The notes under the pieces: generated by a model
What the model saw: the letters and a program-made list of their open reading frames with translations, nothing else
Told to the model about the DNA's origin: nothing
Databases searched by the model: none
Program-made: the position numbers and the translations under genes
Source of the DNA: Myxococcota bacterium
GTDB taxonomy: Bacteria; Myxococcota_A; UBA9160; PR03
NCBI GenBank assembly: GCA_041611735.1
Contig: JBFIML010000027.1
Span: 1 to 57,472, forward strand
Direction: 5' to 3'
DNA: 57,472 bases
Shown: positions 4,072 through 52,038 of the stretch, piece after piece
Position numbering within the stretch: position 1 is the stretch's first letter
Layout: each line of letters starts with the position of its first letter

Positions 4072-7934
<3,863 letters not shown>

Positions 7935-13997: not shown

Positions 13998-14073
13998 GGG
14001 GCCGTAGCTCAACTGGGAGAGCGCCGCGTTCGCAACGCGGAGGTTGGCGGTTCGATCCCGCTCGGCTCCACCA
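13998..14073 (+). tRNA. tRNA-Ala (anticodon CGC)
   Basis: 76-nt cloverleaf GGGGCCG...CGGCTCC-ACCA, G3:U70 Ala identity pair, anticodon arm CCGCG-TTCGCAA-CGCGG, T-loop GTTCGAT. Confidence 0.98.
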
Positions 14074-22844: not shown

Positions 22845-23404
<560 letters not shown>

Positions 23405-37134: not shown

Positions 37135-37653
37135 ATGACGCCGAAGCTGAAGGTTTTTCTCGGGGCGTTGCTGGTGAGCCTGCCGCTCGACCAGGTCACC
37201 AAGCTCTGGGTCGATTCCTCCCTCACGTACGCCGACCGCATCCCCGTGATCGATGGCTTCTTCTACATCACCCACGTGCGCAATCCCGGAGCCGCCTTCG
37301 GTCTGTTCACCTCGAGCCCCGCGGAGCTGCGCCTCTTCTTCTTCATCGGCGTCTCTCTGGTGGCGATCGGCCTCATCTTTTCGTTCTTCCGTCGCCTGGC
37401 CCCGGGGGATCGTCTGTCCGCCTTGGCGCTGGGATTGATCCTCGGGGGAGCGGTCGGCAACTTGATCGACCGCGTGCGTCTCGGTGAAGTCGTGGACTTC
37501 CTCCACTTCCGTCTCTGGAGCGGCTACTCCTGGCCGGACTTCAACCTGGCCGACAGTTTCATCGTCGTGGGTGTCGCACTGCTGGTGATCGAGCTGCTGG
37601 CCAGCGAGGGCGAGAGTCGCGCTGACCCCGCGGGTGCCAAGCCCGGCGCGTGA
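37135..37653 (+). CDS. lspA: Lipoprotein signal peptidase II
   Basis: LDQVTK, NPGAAFG, GGAVGNLIDR, VVDF, FNLAD; extended -10 TGATAGCTT at 37116-37124. Confidence 0.96.
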   Translation: MTPKLKVFLGALLVSLPLDQVTKLWVDSSLTYADRIPVIDGFFYITHVRNPGAAFGLFTSSPAELRLFFFIGVSLVAIGLIFSFFRRLAPGDRLSALALGLILGGAVGNLIDRVRLGEVVDFLHFRLWSGYSWPDFNLADSFIVVGVALLVIELLASEGESRADPAGAKPGA

Positions 37654-40001: not shown

Positions 40002-40179
40002 CGGGGTGCGGGGCGCCCGGAGCGAGTCGGGCCAGCCCGCGCCGGACACCCTCCCGGCGCCGCAACCTCCCGGAACGGCGACCGAAACCCGTTCGACATC
40101 CCCCGAGGTGATCTGGTAGACTGCCGCGTTCCGATCGGCAGCCGGGGTCGGGGCCCGCCGGACACGAGGACGCGTTGCC

Positions 40180-45127: not shown

Positions 45128-46075
45128 TTGTCCCGTCCCCTCCTCCTCGACACCGACATCGGAAGCGACGTGGACGACGCCCTGGCGCTCGCGCTCGTGC
45201 TGGCCGCGCCCCAGGAGTTCGAGTTGATGGCCGTCACCACCGTGGCGCGTGACACGCGCCTCCGCGCGCGCATCGCCGCGCGTCTCCTGGGGATCGCGGG
45301 TCGACGCGAGGTGGAGGTCTGCGCCGGTGAGCGCGGGGCCCTGCTGCGCGGAGAGGAGCGCTTCGGCTGGTGGGGCCACGAGGAGAAGTGCTTCTCCGAA
45401 GGACCCGACGCGCCCGTCTCGAACGAGCTGGCGCCCGAGCGCATGGTGCGCGCCGCCCGGGAGGTGCCGGGCCTGGAGATCGCGGCCATCGGTCCGCTCA
45501 CCAACGTGGCGCGGGCGCTGGCCCTGGACCCGGACCTGCCACGGCGCGTGGGTGGCCTCACGATCATGGGTGGCCACGTGCGCGAGGTGCGCATCGGCGA
45601 CCACGTCTGCAAGCCCGGGATCGACTACAACCTCTGCTCGGACCCCGAGGCCACCATGGCCGTGCTGGGGGCCGGCTTCCGCACCACGCTCGTACCCGCC
45701 GACGTGACGCTGCGGGTCTGGATGCGCGTGCGCGACCTCGAACGCCTCGAGACGGCGGGCGCCCTGGGTGCCGCCCTCGCACACCAGGTGCGCCTGTGGG
45801 CGTCCGTTCAGCACGAGATCTTCCCGAAGCTCGGCGGCACCCTCGAGCCCGACAACGTGGCCTTCCTGCACGATCCGCTCACGATCCAGGCCCTGATCGA
45901 CGCGACGCCGCTGCGCTTCGAGACGCTCCGCATCGTGCCCACCATCGAGCGCGGCATCCTCCGCACCCTCGAGGTGGACCCCGGCCTCGGGCTCGGGGCG
46001 GAGATGCGCGTGGCCACGGACGTGGACGCGCGGGCCGCCGAGAAGGCGATGCTCGAGCGGATCGGCGCAGGCTAG
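45128..46075 (+). CDS. Nucleoside hydrolase (IUNH family)
   Basis: LDTDIGSDVDD, IGPLTN, DPEA, LHDPL. Confidence 0.92.
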   Translation: MSRPLLLDTDIGSDVDDALALALVLAAPQEFELMAVTTVARDTRLRARIAARLLGIAGRREVEVCAGERGALLRGEERFGWWGHEEKCFSEGPDAPVSNELAPERMVRAAREVPGLEIAAIGPLTNVARALALDPDLPRRVGGLTIMGGHVREVRIGDHVCKPGIDYNLCSDPEATMAVLGAGFRTTLVPADVTLRVWMRVRDLERLETAGALGAALAHQVRLWASVQHEIFPKLGGTLEPDNVAFLHDPLTIQALIDATPLRFETLRIVPTIERGILRTLEVDPGLGLGAEMRVATDVDARAAEKAMLERIGAG

Positions 46076-46490
46076 AGCGCCGGCGGCAGGCCCAGGGGGT
46101 TCCGTACGCCGAGCGGTGCGCACGGCCCGCTGCCCCGCAGAGCGGTGCGGGTGCGAACGCCACTTCCCACCGCCCGCCGGGTCCGCGAGGCGTGCTACGC
46201 GATCCTTTCTTGCTCTTGCCCCACGTCCTCGGGCCGGAGTACCGCAAGGTGCGCGAGAAGTTCCTGGCCCCGGGCGCGCAGGCTGTCGCTGACAGCGACA
46301 GCCATTCACGGTCGAGCTCGAAGCCCTGCAGCAGTGGAGCCTCTCCGCTGAGGATGCCGCAAATACCCGCCAGCCGGCCCTCTCGGTGATCGGTGAGGAA
46401 TCGGGGCGCTTGTTCGAGGACGTCCACTATGACGCGCAGGCGAAAGGAGGTGCACGCGAAGCCGCTCGCCGCCAGGTCACGTGTCTACCA

Positions 46491-46557
46491 GGCATCTCGG
46501 TCGCCACCGATTGCGAGTCCTGCATGCAGTGGCACATCGAGCAGGCGGCGGCGGCGC
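46491..46557 (+). pseudogene. Fragment of a carboxymuconolactone decarboxylase/AhpD-family gene
   Basis: GISVATDCESCMQWHIEQAA (CxxC..H core) without plausible N- or C-terminal context; abuts a half attC. Confidence 0.6.
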
Positions 46558-46563
46558 GGAAGG

Positions 46564-46650
46564 TGGTAGGTTCCTGGCCACGGGGCTCAGGTGGCTCGGC
46601 GCTGGCGGTCGTCGCCCGCGGCGTCCGGCTGAGCGCCCTAGCGGTTGGGC
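46564..46650 (+). repeat. attC site 0 (right half only)
   Basis: GCTGAGC-GCCCTAGCG-GTTGGGC (R' 46644-46650); central TGGTAGGTT; left half missing. Confidence 0.7.
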
Positions 46651-46678
46651 AGCCGATCCGTGCCTGAGAGGTGAGCCG

Positions 46679-47080
46679 TTGAAGACCGTAAAGCTAGTCG
46701 CAATCGCAGTCGTCGCATACGTGGGAATCATCGTCGCGTTTGAATCACTGATCGGGTACTTCCAGCCCGCTGACCGGTCGACCCTCGTCATCACCACCTT
46801 CGATGGCGACGGAGTCCCATATGACCGGGTCCTGTCCCGCCTCGAGAGCAATGGCCAGCTCTACGTGGCAGCCAACCACTGGCCCCGTGCCTGGTACGAC
46901 CGCGTGCTGGAGAAGCCGGAGGTGCAGGTCACGCTGGATGGCGAGAAGGGCGACTACCGGGCCGTGCCTGTCACCGGAGTGGAGCGCGATCGGGTCGCCG
47001 GCGAGAACAGACTGGGGGTAGTCCTTCGGATCCTGACCGGCTTCCCGCCCAGATCGTTCGTCCGGCTGGATCCCCGCTAG
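46679..47080 (+). CDS. Cassette: N-terminally anchored split-barrel (deazaflavin/nitroreductase-like) protein
   Basis: TM helix then LVITT..GQLYVAANHWPRAWYDRVLEKPEVQV; TTG start, SD GAGG. Confidence 0.7.
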   Translation: MKTVKLVAIAVVAYVGIIVAFESLIGYFQPADRSTLVITTFDGDGVPYDRVLSRLESNGQLYVAANHWPRAWYDRVLEKPEVQVTLDGEKGDYRAVPVTGVERDRVAGENRLGVVLRILTGFPPRSFVRLDPR

Positions 47081-47122
47081 CGGGTGGTCGGGCGGGGCCG
47101 CCACGGCGAGCACCCTTCGGCT

Positions 47123-47259
47123 GCCCAACAACGCGCTGCAGCGGACAGCGCTTGGCGCCCGGCGCAATCGCTTCGTGGTAGACTCTGGCAGCGTGCGCCC
47201 GCGCCTCGCCGCTGTGGGTCAGCGCGGTGCGGCGCAACTGAGCGCCCGGTCCGTTGGGC
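47123..47259 (+). repeat. attC site A (137 bp)
   Basis: R'' GCCCAAC, L'' GCTGCAGC with extra G, L' ACTGAGC, R' GTTGGGC. Confidence 0.88.
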
Positions 47260-47302
47260 GGATCCAGAACGCACCGGCCGCAGCAACGGCGGGAAATCAA
47301 TC

Positions 47303-47566
47303 GTGGGCGATCCCGTACATTCCTTGATCCTCGATCTTCTGGAGTGGATCGCACCTCGGCCGAGGTCATACGCAGAGGTCATCGACGCGTGGCGCACCTC
47401 GTGTCCTCGGCTTCCCGTCTGGGAGGAGGCCACCGATCGCAGGTATGTCGAACTCCGGGAAGGAGACACTGGCATCCCGATGGTCTGCCTGACGTCGCGC
47501 GGTCGCGAGTTCCTGAATCGGCATCGGGGAGTCGAACGCACGCCCGGGACCCCTGGCGAACGATAG
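47303..47566 (+). CDS. Cassette: small hypothetical protein (WRTSCPRLPVWE motif)
   Basis: Single ORF bracketed by attC A and B. Confidence 0.75.
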   Translation: MGDPVHSLILDLLEWIAPRPRSYAEVIDAWRTSCPRLPVWEEATDRRYVELREGDTGIPMVCLTSRGREFLNRHRGVERTPGTPGER

Positions 47567-47586
47567 AACCTGATTTGCGCAGCACC

Positions 47587-47716
47587 GCCCAGCGAGGCGC
47601 TGCAGCTGGCGAGCAAGTTCCAATCGATGCGTGGTACCGTTTGGCATCGAAGTCGGGCGCTTCGGTCGAGCCACGGAGGCGCTGTGACTCGCGGGTGGGC
47701 GCCAAGTCCGTTGGGC
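47587..47716 (+). repeat. attC site B (130 bp, degenerate)
   Basis: R'' GCCCAGC, L'' GCTGCAGC, R' GTTGGGC; L' eroded. Confidence 0.75.
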
Positions 47717-47737
47717 GGCGCTGGATCGGAGGGTCCT

Positions 47738-48190
47738 GTGAAGCGAGTGGCCGAGCTGCGCGACCTCTCAGACGACCACCACACAGGGCTCGTGCTCGCG
47801 CGCCGGTGCAAGCAAGCCGGCCGCGCAGACTCCGATCTTTCCGCCGAGCAGGTTTGGGAGCAGGTACTCGAGGCGTTCTCGAGCCACCTGGAGCCGCACT
47901 TCCAGATCGAGGAGCAACATCTTCTTCCGGCGTTGGAAGCCATTGGGGAGGCTGCACTCGCTGCGCGAGTCCGCCAGGACCACAGCGCTCTCCGTACGCT
48001 ACAGAGGATCGAAGTCCCCAACCGAGCGTTGGTCAAACGCTTCGGCGAGCTTCTCGAATCGCATATCCGTTACGAGGAGCGCCAAGTGTTCGAGCCTACC
48101 CAAGAACGGCTGCCGGCTCGTGCCCTCCAGGCCATCGCAGTGGCTTGCCAAGCCATCCCGCGGGTTTGCCCCGCCTCGCTCAAGGTGTAG
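47738..48190 (+). CDS. Cassette: hemerythrin-domain protein
   Basis: [30 protein letters not shown]. Confidence 0.85.
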   Translation: MKRVAELRDLSDDHHTGLVLARRCKQAGRADSDLSAEQVWEQVLEAFSSHLEPHFQIEEQHLLPALEAIGEAALAARVRQDHSALRTLQRIEVPNRALVKRFGELLESHIRYEERQVFEPTQERLPARALQAIAVACQAIPRVCPASLKV

Positions 48191-48199
48191 CGCCGGGCT

Positions 48200-48333
48200 G
48201 CCTGACAAGGGGGTGCAGCCGCCGTGGCACAGCGCGTTCCAAGCGACCGATGATAGAGTCTGGCATTGAACTTGGGTGCCTCAGCGGCCGTCGGCGGCGT
48301 GTGCCACGCGGATGAGCGCCCGTTCCGTTGGGC
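48200..48333 (+). repeat. attC site C (134 bp)
   Basis: R'' GCCTGAC, L'' GGTGCAGC, inner stem GTGGCACA/TGTGCCAC, L' GATGAGC, R' GTTGGGC. Confidence 0.82.
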
Positions 48334-48349
48334 GGCCACCAGACGAGGC

Positions 48350-48675
48350 GTGACACTTCTTGAGTACATCGCGGCCGCCTTCCAGCCCGAGTCGAGGTCC
48401 TGGGTCCATGCAAGCTGGGTCTGCCTCGGTATCTTCTTGATCAGCCTGACCTGGTGGTTCTTCTGGTCGTACCAAGAGGTCAACTGGAACTACGCCCGCT
48501 TCCTGATCGCCCTCCTCCCAGTCGGCCTCCTCTACGTCCTGGCAGCCCGGCAGCCGGGTGCCCGATCCGTTGCCGGCGTCGCCGCGACTCGGAGGCCTGC
48601 CGCATGATCCCCTTCATCGTCCTGGTCGTCGTCCTCTTCGTGGGGTTCCTGATGGCCGCGCGATTGGAGTCCTGA
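48350..48675 (+). pseudogene. Cassette: probably internally deleted membrane-protein gene
   Basis: MTLLEY..SWVHASWV..WWFFWSYQEVNWNY segment, followed by a separate 23-aa hydrophobic tail (48604-48675) in another frame. Confidence 0.5.
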
Positions 48676-49224
48676 ATGGTCGCGGGGCATTACGCAATAT
48701 CGCTGGTGGCCTACGAACGGCATCGGGAAGGACCGCTCTGGCTCTTTCTGATCGCCGGGATGTTTCTCGACATCCTGATGATCCTACTGGTGCTCGTCGG
48801 AGTCGAAGAAATGGCTCCAGGCCCAGGCGCCACTCGCCCCGGCTTCTCCACCATGGTCATCGACATGTCGTATAGCCACGATCTCGTCCCAGTCGCCGGG
48901 TGGGCGGTCGCAATGACCGCAGCTGCCTACCTCGTAACGCGGAACCGGGGAGCGGCAATCTGGGCGGGCGGTCTGGTCGTGCTGCATGAAGTGGCGGATC
49001 TTGTATCCGGGTTTCCGCATTTCGTGCTCGGTCCCGACAGCCCCGCAATCGGACTCGGACTCTACATCCATGCGCCCGTTGGCGCGCTCGTCGCCGAATT
49101 GCTGGTGGCCTTGGCCTGCGTTTGGTGGTTCAGCACGCGTACAAGACTCGCTGGCAGACGGCAGCTGGCACTGTATCTCCTATCCTTCTTGGGCGTTGGG
49201 GCGCTCCTGCCCATGGCGCTGTGA
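48676..49224 (+). CDS. Cassette: membrane protein, putative metal-dependent hydrolase family
   Basis: MVAGHY..PLW..FLDIL..MSYSHDL..LHEVAD; followed by attC left end. Confidence 0.72.
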   Translation: MVAGHYAISLVAYERHREGPLWLFLIAGMFLDILMILLVLVGVEEMAPGPGATRPGFSTMVIDMSYSHDLVPVAGWAVAMTAAAYLVTRNRGAAIWAGGLVVLHEVADLVSGFPHFVLGPDSPAIGLGLYIHAPVGALVAELLVALACVWWFSTRTRLAGRRQLALYLLSFLGVGALLPMAL

Positions 49225-49233
49225 CGGCCCGCC

Positions 49234-49275
49234 GCCCAACAAGACGATGCAGCGGATGTGGCACGGCGCGTTCCA
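49234..49275 (+). repeat. attC site D1 (left half only)
   Basis: GCCCAAC-AAGAC-GATGCAGC-GGATGTGGCACGGCGCGTTCCA, similar to left arm of site C. Confidence 0.7.
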
Positions 49276-49453
49276 CCCCGCATCACATCGGGGCGGTCAC
49301 CGGCCGGGCCAGCTGCAGCGTCTGCGATCACGGTCCCGCAGTTTCAGAGGGCCCGCGAGCTGGCCGTGGAGCCGTTTCGGACCCATCAGATCCGTCGGCA
49401 CCTGCGCGCAACGCCCGCTGCTTCGCATCATGCAATTCGGACTCCAGCATGCC

Positions 49454-49606
49454 GCCCAAGTCGCGGGACGAGTCCATCCCGTCACTGCCCGGACACGGCC
49501 GGCTGCGCCGTGACGAAGGGTGCTAGGGTCTGGGCGTCGTGGCTCGAATGGCCCGGCGCCGGCGGTCGGTGCTCGCGGCGCAGCAGAGCGCCTGGGCCGT
49601 TTGGGC
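49454..49606 (+). repeat. attC site D2 (degenerate)
   Basis: GCCCAAG ... TGCTAGGGT ... GCAGAGC-GCCTGGGCC-GTTTGGGC. Confidence 0.6.
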
Positions 49607-49629
49607 GGCGTGATCGGAGACCCCGGCAG

Positions 49630-50028
49630 ATGTCCCCAATCCAGCCCTTCGTCATCCACGAGCAAGAGTGCGAATTCGAGCGGTGGGATGAGCCGGCAGC
49701 CGGGCGGGTTCGGTGGCGGACTCTGCTGAGCGGAGATCGCACGCCAACCGAGTCACTCACCCTGGGCGTGGCTGAGCTGGAATCCGGTGAAGCGAAGGAT
49801 TTTCGCCCACACCGGCACGCGCAGGCGGAGGTGTATTACATCCTTTCGGGGGAAGGAACCGTCACCATCGCAGGCAAGGAGTATCCGGTACGGGCAGGCT
49901 CCGCGGTCTTCGTGCCCGGTGACGCTGTGCACGGAGCGCGGAACACTGGAAGGGAGCTGCTCCGGCTACTCTACGTGTTCCCCGCTGACTCGTTCGATGA
50001 GATCGAGTACGAGTTCCCCTCCTCGTGA
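49630..50028 (+). CDS. Cassette: cupin domain protein (DddW-like)
   Basis: HRHAQAEVYY and PGDAVHG cupin motifs; C-terminal SFDEIEYEF. Confidence 0.85.
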   Translation: MSPIQPFVIHEQECEFERWDEPAAGRVRWRTLLSGDRTPTESLTLGVAELESGEAKDFRPHRHAQAEVYYILSGEGTVTIAGKEYPVRAGSAVFVPGDAVHGARNTGRELLRLLYVFPADSFDEIEYEFPSS

Positions 50029-50045
50029 GACTCCAGCCGCACGCC

Positions 50046-50172
50046 GCCCGACAAGGCGCCGAGGCCGCACCGCCCGGCGCAATCGGTCCGTGAGACGGTC
50101 CGGCGGCGGGCGCCGGCATCCCTCGCTACCGGTCAGCGCCCGCGGCGCCGCTGAGCGCCCGGTCCGTCAGGG
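50046..50172 (+). repeat. attC site E (degenerate, related to site A)
   Basis: GCCCGAC ... CGCCCGGCGCAATCG (15 bp shared with A) ... GCTGAGCGCCCGGTCC-GTCAGGG. Confidence 0.72.
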
Positions 50173-50184
50173 GGCGGCAGTGAC

Positions 50185-50610
50185 ATGACGGACACCTTGG
50201 CGACGTTGGGGAGCTCGCCGCGACCTCGCTGGATGAGCGCGCTCGCCATCTTCTGCCTCGCAACGGTGCTGTTTCTCGTTCCACGAGATCTCTTCTTCGC
50301 CGAAACCCGCGACGTGGAGGTCTGGCTCGGATTCGAGCTCCGAGGAACTCTCGCGCTGGCTACAGCGCCGCTTCACTGGGCCATCTTTCTGCTCGGCGCC
50401 TGGGCCTTCTGGTTTCGGCGCCCCTGGATCCTGCCGTGCGCCGCAGGCTATCTGTTCTACATTGGAATCAGCCACCTCATCTGGAGCGAGGCCAGCCCGA
50501 ATGGGCGAGGCTGGCCTTCGGGCCTCGCACAGGCTCTGGTGATTTCAGTCCCGGGCGTCCTGCTCCTGCGCGCTCACCGCCTGACGAGGCGCGAACCAGC
50601 GGTGGAATAG
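50185..50610 (+). CDS. Membrane protein of unknown function
   Basis: About four hydrophobic segments; starts 12 nt after attC E. Confidence 0.72.
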   Translation: MTDTLATLGSSPRPRWMSALAIFCLATVLFLVPRDLFFAETRDVEVWLGFELRGTLALATAPLHWAIFLLGAWAFWFRRPWILPCAAGYLFYIGISHLIWSEASPNGRGWPSGLAQALVISVPGVLLLRAHRLTRREPAVE

Positions 50611-50623
50611 GCTCCTGGCGAGC

Positions 50624-51232
50624 GTGCCGAACCTGTTCAGCGGCTTCCGCGTCTTGTGCGCCCCGGTTCTGCTGGCGCTGGCGTGGCAGGGCGCCCCGGG
50701 CGCCTTCCTGACCCTCTTCGCTCTCGGGCTCGTATCCGACGTGTTGGATGGCGCGCTTGCCCGGTGGCTTGGCCAGGAATCGGACTTTGGGGCCCGGCTC
50801 GACCAGTGGGCCGACTTCGCGCTCTGGGTCTCATTTCCGCTGGGCGCCTGGTGGCTCTGGCCCGATGTCGTTCGCCGGGAGGCAAGCTACGTGGTTCTTG
50901 CCGTTGTTTGCCTCCTGCTACCCACGGCGTTGGCCTACGCAAAGTACCGGGCGGTTCCCGGCTATCACACCTGGTCGGCGAAGCTGGACTCGGTCCTGAT
51001 GGGGATCGGCGTGCCCCTGCTCCTGGTATTCGACGTGGCCTGTCCGTTTCGTCTCGCAAGCCTCTTCCTGTTGGTGTGTGCGGTCGACGAGATGGGCATC
51101 ACCTACCTTCTGCAGGAGTGCCGGCACGACGTGCCGTCGGTCTTTCATGCTGCGCGGCTGCGGAGAAGCAGAGCCGAGCAGTCGATCGGTGCTTCTGCAA
51201 TGGGTGGCTCGAGCGAGGTGACTCCCGAGTAG
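50624..51232 (+). CDS. CDP-alcohol phosphatidyltransferase family protein
   Basis: PNLFS, SDVLDGALAR..GARLDQWAD motif. Confidence 0.9.
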   Translation: MPNLFSGFRVLCAPVLLALAWQGAPGAFLTLFALGLVSDVLDGALARWLGQESDFGARLDQWADFALWVSFPLGAWWLWPDVVRREASYVVLAVVCLLLPTALAYAKYRAVPGYHTWSAKLDSVLMGIGVPLLLVFDVACPFRLASLFLLVCAVDEMGITYLLQECRHDVPSVFHAARLRRSRAEQSIGASAMGGSSEVTPE

Positions 51233-51375
51233 CGCAATCCGATCTGGGCGCCCCGACGCGCCGTCCCCTGGCCACCCCGGGCTCGGCTGCCTGGGGTGCT
51301 AGGCTTCTCTCACGGGAGCGCCCACGGCAAGACGTCCGCGGCAAGAGGTTCGCGGCAAGAGGATGGAGGGCGGGG

Positions 51376-52038
51376 GTGGCGCAGGTGCTTCTATACGGCT
51401 GTCTCGTGGGCATCAGCCTGATCCTCTTTGCGTTCCCCAGGAGACTCCGAGCGCCCGTCGGGTGGCTGGCCGTCCTGGTGGGCGTCGCGGTCTTCGCCAT
51501 ACGCCTGCAACACGAGGGGCCGTATGCCTTCCCGGAGCGTGGAAACCTGCTCTCCGGGGTCCTCGCCCTGGTGGCGGGGCTCGCGCTTCTCGGGCCGTGG
51601 CTCGGAGGCGAGCGATCCACATCCCTGCTGACGCGCGCCGTCCTGGTGGCGACCCCGATCGTCGTCTTCTTCGGGCTCTACGCCACCCTCTCCGAACTCG
51701 AAGAAGTGGTCGTACTCCGCACCAGCGATGAACGAGGCGATACCCGGGACCTGCGTCTCTGGGTGGTGGACCACGAAGGGACGCCCTGGGTCACCATGCC
51801 CAGGTGGAAGGCCGAGGCGCACGGGCTCACGGACACTCGTGCCGAGCTGCTTCGGCGTGGCGCCATGGGTTGCGTGATCGCGAAGCGTCACGAGGACTAC
51901 GCGACCGTGGACCAGATCTTCCGACTCCGTCACGAGAAGTACCGGATCCAGCGGCTCGCCACCGCCCTGGGGATCTTCGGTCGATCCGTGGGCAGGGACG
52001 TAGTGACCCTCCGCCTCGCGCCATGTCCCGCTCCCTGA
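51376..52038 (+). CDS. Membrane protein with C-terminal split-barrel-like domain
   Basis: Four TM segments then EVVVLRT..LWVVDHEG..EKY; SD GGAGG; extended -10 TGCTAGGCT at 51297-51305. Confidence 0.65.
   Translation: MAQVLLYGCLVGISLILFAFPRRLRAPVGWLAVLVGVAVFAIRLQHEGPYAFPERGNLLSGVLALVAGLALLGPWLGGERSTSLLTRAVLVATPIVVFFGLYATLSELEEVVVLRTSDERGDTRDLRLWVVDHEGTPWVTMPRWKAEAHGLTDTRAELLRRGAMGCVIAKRHEDYATVDQIFRLRHEKYRIQRLATALGIFGRSVGRDVVTLRLAPCPAP

Follow-up and report, generated by a model that had tools for sequence, protein, structure and literature searches.

The attC sites of an integron cassette array in a 57,472-nt contig of a Myxococcota bacterium (hereafter the window, i.e., the whole stretch of DNA analyzed) carry at their center a fixed 9-nt box that recurs upstream of many genes of the host. 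The array, located at 46.5 to 50.2 kb, comprises five or six cassettes of 0.45 to 1.3 kb, all on the + strand. The ~141-nt repeats that lie between its small open reading frames (ORFs), and whose ends read GCCCAAC...GTTGGGC, are integron attC sites. The box, TGnTAnnnT on the cassette strand (pattern TGNTANNNT), probably is an extended −10 promoter built into attC that drives the downstream cassette. An attC-borne, −35-independent promoter aimed at the next cassette was the core of the original prediction, and it is backed by the identity of the motif, its fixed offset, its restriction to a single strand, and the drift of its unspecified positions; that the box fires, we infer from these patterns. 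Cassette expression would then depend neither on the platform promoter Pc nor on the distance from it.

A fixed box at the center of the attC sites

All six 9-mers quoted in the original prediction were found where they had been placed (Table 1), five as exact matches to the pattern and the one at 50091 in the degenerate form described. The last T of the motif precedes the G of the GTT core by 71, 70, 71, 69, 71, and 67 nt in sites A to F, respectively, in line with the 66 to 71 nt claimed. The count of six attC sites holds for four complete ones (B, C, D, and F); site A is a 3′ half, and site E is a chimera of two unrelated attC halves parted by ~240 nt of other DNA. The number of pattern matches in the whole window is, by itself, within the chance range (12 versus 7.4 ± 2.8 expected, with 10 of 100 shuffles reaching 12). 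Their strand bias and clustering exceed chance: all 12 lie on the + strand and 5 fall within 3 kb, against 0.076 matches per kb in the genome as a whole (312 in 4.09 Mb, both strands). The seven matches outside attC are all intergenic and −1 to 88 nt upstream of a called + strand gene start. They include the anticipated motifs ahead of eno, lspA, and the acyl-CoA dehydrogenase gene (5897, 37116, and 38766), as well as copies of two attC boxes; the reported identities do exist, with the site letters shifted, the motif at 40114 being that at 47176 (site B) and the motif at 23001 that at 47632 (site C). A scan of positions 46000 to 51500 for classical −35/−10 pairs returned no promoters that could serve as alternatives, and terminator-like matches fell within ORFs. 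Neither an integrase nor Pc lies near the array.

Of 121 relatives, 92 gave matches to a covariance model trained on seven attC sites of the host genome; they cover 45 of 60 genera and 12 families of one order. In an even sample of the phylum, the model found the family in 18 of 151 genomes, all of one class. Because this box-containing model could favor the box, 22 long loci and the window were searched anew with a hidden Markov model (HMM) restricted to the 3′ box, which yielded 189 sites from 18 genomes. This sample keeps some bias in that the long arrays had been picked from the match list of the box-containing model. In 113 of the 189 sites, an exact box precedes the 3′-box end by 83 to 93 nt, and nGnTAnnnT occupies the same offset in 15. 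The remainder divides into 9 sites in which TTGACC-N18-CATACT replaces a box whose A is lost, 9 with a different central backbone and TGGTAGnnT at −50/−51, and 43 with no promoter-like element. Shuffled centers gave a mean of 0.8 and a maximum of 5 exact boxes, and permuted motifs gave 0 to 1; the positional enrichment expected in related genomes was thus found. At the attC sites of the 18 genomes, box matches number 123 on the top strand and 1 on the bottom strand. Counting by 80%-identity clusters instead of sites leaves the box in 43 of 91. The 113 exact sites comprise 23 different 9-mers, TGGTAGnnT being the usual form.

In an alignment of 72 sites from ~30 genomes, the five specified positions of the box (T, G, T, A, and T) have information contents of 1.45 to 2.19 bits, whereas positions 6 to 8 have 0.34, 0.08, and 0.34 bits, and the neighboring loop columns are far less conserved than the specified positions. 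Variation falls mostly on the N positions, as first described; since these columns are the least conserved, the equal conservation of N and TG/TA/T positions that had been named as the mark of simple shared descent was not observed. Realignment with a masked-column HMM (174 of 189 sites aligned) kept the succession of high, low, and high conservation, the last T reaching the top value of 1.09 bits, although the offset varies by ±4 nt, so that masking blurs the register and this result is weaker than the occurrence counts. The claim that the box persists while the R and L boxes erode found no general support in the 189 sites: a promoter-like element was present in 136 of 171 sites that have a 5′ box and in 10 of 18 where that box is undetectable.

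An independent sample was drawn by applying an exact 3′-box pattern to named public genomes (119 stretches found, 80 evaluated, 86 sites). The box occupies the expected offset in 65 of the 86 sites. By the labels of the metagenome-assembled genomes (MAGs), these are 28 of 35 sites in Myxococcota/Deltaproteobacteria, 13 of 20 in Gemmatimonadota, 7 of 9 in Spirochaetales, 6 of 6 in Gammaproteobacteria, 4 of 5 in Binatia, 3 of 3 in Chloroflexota, 0 of 3 in Acidobacteriota, and 4 of 5 in others; since MAG labels can be wrong, this spread across phyla is a lead, not a result.

Pairing within attC leaves room for such a signal. GCCCAAC, GCCCAGC, or GCCTGAC pairs with GTTGGGC in the cores of sites B to D. 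Over the 72 aligned sites, the R″/R′ helix is paired in 88.6% of cells, with CG-to-UA exchanges in 17, and the L″/L′ helix in 95.4%, with both sides changed in 6 of 10 pairs. None of 500 shuffles matched the observed values, and slid controls were 24 to 42% paired versus 85%, figures that are somewhat favored by an alignment fitted to the covariance model. Six unpaired columns are confined to the 3′ side of the hairpin. In the bottom-strand fold of site B the motif falls in the apical loop, and across bottom-strand folds the box is 62% unpaired versus 32% for the whole site. The hairpin center is the only stretch free of pairing constraint, so that a one-stranded signal can evolve there without its mirror image. 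The arrays of relatives are organized likewise and reach ~40 sites. A tandem expansion was seen in one attC of relative G044 (locus L044, ~7774 to 7801), where ~4 copies of the 15-nt unit GCGCTGCCGGTCAGC in the 3′ arm shift the promoter box ~50 nt further from R′.

Two variants of the attC center depart from the usual arrangement. The subtype with TGGTT, in which the −10 A is lost, has two invariant elements, TTGACC and CATACT, on either side of a variable 18-nt spacer in nine sites of at least six genomes; one C-to-T change in the usual AATCGACC would yield the −35-like TTGACC. In the second backbone, TGGTAGnnT stands 50 to 51 nt ahead of the 3′-box end, beside the L′ arm rather than at the apex. 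Together, the −35/−10 subtype and the −51 backbone argue that promoter function, not one loop sequence, is the selected property. A −10-like box also lies ~45 nt before the attI GTT in three relatives with bona fide IntI (Table 1), and none was seen in the attI of G053, one of the four attI regions examined. Given the boxes of attI and attC, a −10 box seems to come with each recombination site of these integrons. G022 has a "reverse integron" layout, its integrase being codirectional with the cassettes.

The same motif upstream of host genes

Outside attC arrays, 213 of 300 copies of TGNTANNNT in the host genome (71%) are intergenic, versus 8.1% of the genome as a whole. We called genes with a crude codon-usage caller made for this analysis (3715 genes, 92% coding). 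By these calls, 187 of the 300 copies (62%) are intergenic and lie at most 200 nt upstream of a same-strand gene. The same test gave 2 to 12% for seven permuted or one-base-changed control motifs, 27% for GTNTANNNT, 18% for TCNTANNNT, and 39%, 34%, and 26% for GGNTANNNT, CGNTANNNT, and AGNTANNNT, respectively. Neither upstream nor downstream of the motif did 185 upstream instances contain any information, and the blank upstream side argues that there is no −35 element. Independently of gene calls, a long ORF with high G+C at third codon positions starts 7 to 9 nt after the last T in 48 of the 300 copies, whereas a control motif produced codon periodicity only. This ORF-start peak is the sequence signature expected of leaderless mRNAs, and it calibrates the start point: predicted transcription starts fall 7 to 9 nt after the last T, in agreement with those of the original prediction. 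Many host genes look leaderless, an example in the window being the signal peptidase II gene near 37135.

Albeit indirectly, these results point to TGnTAnnnT as the housekeeping promoter consensus of the host. Extended −10 promoters, TGnTATAAT in Escherichia coli, work without a −35 element, and −10 boxes of the TAnnnT type occur in high-G+C bacteria. The box described here has in common with extended −10 promoters a TG one base before the hexamer, fixed A(−11) and T(−7), the lack of a −35, and a start, predicted in the present case, ~7 nt downstream. What sets it apart is the G+C-rich middle of its hexamer (TAGnnT or TACnnT).

Proposed mechanism and alternative explanations

If the box is a promoter, RNA polymerase would bind it in double-stranded DNA and start transcription at the distance given above. 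Transcription would then cross the 3′ arm of attC (~60 nt, L′ and R′) and enter the next cassette, producing leaders of ~80 to 110 nt that contain one hairpin arm only. The ORFs start 91 to 119 nt past the boxes of sites A to E. Since crossover takes place at G/TT of R′, the promoter would move with the upstream cassette and serve any cassette placed downstream, and the first cassette would be served by the similar −10 box within attI.

Several observations weigh against this interpretation. The gene-based promoter test depends on our own crude gene calls, and no public RNA run was listed as containing positions 46400 to 50300 of the window. Nearly a quarter of the attC sites (43 of 189) have no promoter-like element, and they do not compensate for it: the pattern occurs in the next 150 nt in 1 of 41 box-less sites versus 2 of 109 with a box. 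The link to sense ORFs is weak. Sense-to-antisense ratios of the downstream ORF were 90:12 for promoter-like sites versus 20:8 for those without (odds ratio 3.0, P = 0.04), and 69:11 versus 20:7 when the largest array was left out (odds ratio 2.2, P = 0.15). Finally, attC boxes have G at position 3 in 110 of 113 cases versus 35% of housekeeping ones, and a TGGC comes after the box in 74 of the 113 sites, a feature that housekeeping promoters lack. The fixed G and TGGC make a second constraint likely, either structural or protein-binding.

One alternative assigns the box a role in recombination or folding instead of expression, either as a sequence in the variable terminal structure that is recognized on the folded bottom strand by IntI or by a host protein, or as a relatively A/T-rich spot at which hairpin extrusion nucleates in very G+C-rich DNA; its likeness to promoters would then be incidental. 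The mostly unpaired position of the box at the hairpin center is as this explanation would have it, the conserved G at position 3 and TGGC are non-promoter features in the host genome, and the GGC of TGGC pairs with a GCY ~15 nt downstream in 96% of cells. However, a role in melting or looping predicts neither the exact T-G-n-T-A-n-n-n-T nor a strand bias of 123 to 1, and it fails to predict the match with a motif that stands upstream of genes in 62% of its genomic copies. Moreover, the second backbone has its box by the L′ arm instead of the apex, a third swaps in a −35/−10 pair, and TGGC is absent from 39 of the 113 sites that retain the box. We consider this alternative unlikely.

Equally unlikely, in our judgment, is a true promoter with another product, for example a short attC-derived RNA, or with an effect of polymerase opening that promotes or blocks attC extrusion and couples transcription to mobility. 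Polymerase would open the DNA (about −11 to +2) exactly at the center of the inverted repeat, and all predicted transcripts would start with the same conserved 3′ arm. Specific support was not found: the RNA folds of the five leaders predicted in the window are unremarkable (z-scores of −1.3 to +1.2). Where a clear ORF lies downstream of a promoter-like site, it is in sense in 90 of 102 cases, which makes cassette mRNA the simplest product.

Under shared descent alone, all these attC sites would go back to one ancestor, as the Vibrio repeats (VCRs) do, and the box would be a frozen or homogenized piece of it that serves no function itself. Sedentary integrons do have lineage-specific, homogeneous attC sites according to the available text of Ghaly et al. 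(2021; PMC8352920), and in one relative's array an identical TGGTAGGAT is found in 35 of 37 sites. Yet the N positions of the box drift while the five specified ones stay, between flanking loop columns of far lower conservation, and the box recurs in attC backbones whose centers do not align. On this evidence we regard descent without function as very improbable. A sigma-54 promoter (TGG...TGGCA) was rejected, given that its consensus has an invariant GG at −24 and GC at −12 (GG-N10-GC), whereas the spacing here is GG-N9-GC, A, C, or T stands in place of the second G in sites D and E, among others, and 39 of the 113 sites lack TGGC.

A promoter within attC would alter the standard model of integrons, in which cassettes are promoterless, expression is set by the distance from Pc, and big chromosomal arrays are mostly silent stores that need reshuffling. 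The sites described here otherwise resemble those of sedentary chromosomal integrons and of clusters of attC sites lacking integron integrases (CALINs), such as the VCRs of ~120 to 130 nt: both have R″ RYYYAAC, R′ GTTRRRY, two stems with compensatory changes, and an unpaired center. One small ORF per cassette, a single direction, and lineage-conserved sequence are further common traits, and IntI lies beside the arrays of relatives. The difference resides in the center, which holds a fixed box identical to the host promoter motif, whereas the literature, in the portions at hand, treats the loop as variable. Ghaly et al. (2021) present lineage-specific attC models, including one for "Deltaproteobacteria," in a text whose available part contains neither "promoter" nor "transcription."

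With Pc, the box shares a sigma-70-type sequence directed into promoterless cassettes; class 1 Pc variants with a TGN-extended −10 and a Pc2 inside attI2 of class 2 integrons are described in the part of the review by Fonseca and Vicente (PMC8876359) available to us, which covers Pc variants, cassette-borne promoters, and ORF-less promoter cassettes, and in that part no promoter of an attC family. It differs in that Pc is a single platform promoter from which expression falls with distance, whereas the present box is repeated per attC and moves with the cassettes. Sporadic promoters within arrays are closer precedents. In Vibrio sp. DAT722, a single promoter of the sigma-70 type bridges an attC (Michael and Labbate 2010; PMC2945992). 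Transcription starts have been mapped to the attC of F2, a cassette without genes (Blanco et al. 2024; PMC11014356), and ORF-less oral cassettes contain promoters (PMC6557892). As far as these sources go, transcription can begin in or at attC, and arrays are not fed by Pc alone; their examples are, however, single cases, mostly in cassette bodies or gene-less cassettes, and none is conserved across an attC family. Our literature search found no description of a lineage-wide attC-borne promoter, although attC logos and tables in supplements (e.g., of PMC8352920) may hold more. Integron promoters in general are known; attC sites with a putative built-in, lineage-wide promoter, which are well supported in silico, appear to be new.

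If true, the attC-borne promoter would give a whole lineage position-independent cassette expression and explain how integrase-less arrays (CALINs) remain useful. Each cassette would bring a switch for its downstream neighbor wherever it is inserted, including after transfer to other phyla. A much bolder extension is that across a whole class, and in cassettes of MAGs labeled as other phyla, every cassette carries a portable promoter at its hairpin center, that arrays are constitutively served, and that opening by RNA polymerase may couple transcription to attC extrusion and mobility. We hold this extension to be doubtful. If it applied to every cassette, integrons would be arrays of constitutively served genes and not "one promoter plus a silent memory."

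The cassette array and its host genome

Table 1. Coordinates of attC sites, boxes, and ORFs in the window (positions 1 to 57,472), followed by boxes in loci of relatives (locus and position)
Feature	Position	Strand	Remarks
Site A, 3′ half only	46560..46653	+	Motif, 3′ arm, and R′ GTTGGGC at 46643; no R″/L″; nhmmer HMM positions 55-144
Site A motif TGGTAGGTT	46564-46572	+	Predicted transcription start 46579-46581
Cassette 1 ORF, 133 amino acids	46679..47080	+	Weak match, below threshold, to F420H2-dependent quinone reductase-like proteins; start 107 nt past site A motif
Site B, complete attC	47120..47263	+	R″ GCCCAAC at 47123, R′ GTTGGGC at 47254; covariance model 116 bits
Site B motif TGGTAGACT, in unpaired center	47176-47184	+	Predicted transcription start 47191-47193
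Cassette 2 ORF, 87 amino acids	47303..47566	+	No Pfam family
Site C, complete attC	47584..47720	+	Covariance model 121 bits
Site C motif TGGTACCGT	47632-47640	+	Predicted transcription start 47647-47649
Cassette 3 ORF, 150 amino acids	47738..48190	+	Hemerythrin HHE domain, PF01814, E = 1.5e-9
Site D, complete attC	48197..48337	+	Covariance model 126 bits
Site D motif TGATAGAGT	48251-48259	+	Predicted transcription start 48266-48268
Cassette 4, two ORFs	48350..49224	+	ORFs 48350-48607 and 48676-49224
Site E, 5′ half (R″/L″)	49230..49275	+	nhmmer HMM positions 4-49; inner stem mismatches the following 3′ half
Site E, 3′ half of another attC	49514..49604	+	nhmmer HMM positions 52-140; R′ with an extra T (GTTTGGGC)
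Site E motif TGCTAGGGT	49521-49529	+	Predicted transcription start 49536-49538
Cassette 5 ORF, 132 amino acids	49630..50028	+	Cupin, PF07883, E = 5e-18
Site F, last recognizable attC	50043..50176	+	Covariance model 86 bits; R′ eroded (GTCAGGG)
Site F motif, degenerate TGAGACGGT	50091-50099	+	
Non-attC motif, enolase	5897	+	
Non-attC motif TGGTACCGT, P-II/glnB	23001	+	
Non-attC motif, signal peptidase II	37116	+	
Non-attC motif, acyl-CoA dehydrogenase	38766	+	
Non-attC motif TGGTAGACT, malic enzyme	40114..40122	+	58 nt ahead of ORF
Non-attC motifs, unnamed ORFs	51297 and 57132	+	
TGGTT subtype sites	L034 16751; L040 5918; L041 679/6206/10419/12949; L044 4915; L046 3366; L048 7815		
TGGTT-type site	L053 8622		CTGACC
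Second backbone sites	L037 744/1317/6868/7521/7939; L045 5547; L050 8796; L051 2776/6158		
attI regions	L139 (G053), L140 (G027), L141 (G052), L035 (G022)		Box TGATATGCT in G027 and TAGACT in G052 and G022; none seen in G053

The ORF at 46386 to 46667, which runs into half-site A, is probably a decayed cassette gene; it had no Pfam match at an E value of 0.01 and contains a CxxCxxxH-like stretch, CESCMQWH, which we take to resemble the AhpD/CMD motif. Cassette 4 probably consists of two fused cassettes, and most of the intervening attC may have been deleted. Within its first ORF, a stretch like the 3′ end of attC (GCCCGATCCGTTGCCGGCG) lies at 48540 to 48585, with an R′-like remnant, recognized by eye, near 48560 to 48580. 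The DNA between the halves of site E (49276 to 49513) probably derives from a cassette that was lost; it contains a 49-codon minus-strand ORF (49328 to 49477) and no Pfam match. Among the DNA contigs of four metagenome runs that we compared, the split site E recurs in a contig of another study, which spans 47622 to 49817, and the metagenomes of the four runs also hold other attC variants with the same box.

No integron integrase was found in the window, and no complete one in the 118 contigs of the host assembly (4.09 Mb, 72% G+C), of which the window is one. Since the integrase is absent beside it, the array was classed as a CALIN. The only integrase trace in the assembly is a 19-residue IntI-like match on the opposite strand at the start of host contig C99, at whose edge the integron platform may sit. 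In four relatives, IntI lies beside arrays of the same attC type (TIGR02249, 423 to 450 bits; cutoff, 265). More attC sites occur elsewhere in the host genome, on C99 (whole), C66 (11174 to 11289), and C16 (42754 to 44962), and the exact box was present in 7 of 11 regions.

As for the surroundings of the array, DNA of the stretch occurs in marine and sediment metagenome runs, and its malic enzyme is 81% identical to the counterpart in a MAG labeled Myxococcota, by which the host is tentatively placed in that phylum. The attC sites matched no Rfam family in a scan of the window, whose sole Rfam match is a tRNA gene at 13998 to 14070. A nucleoside hydrolase gene (45128 to 46075) lies upstream of the row of small + strand ORFs.

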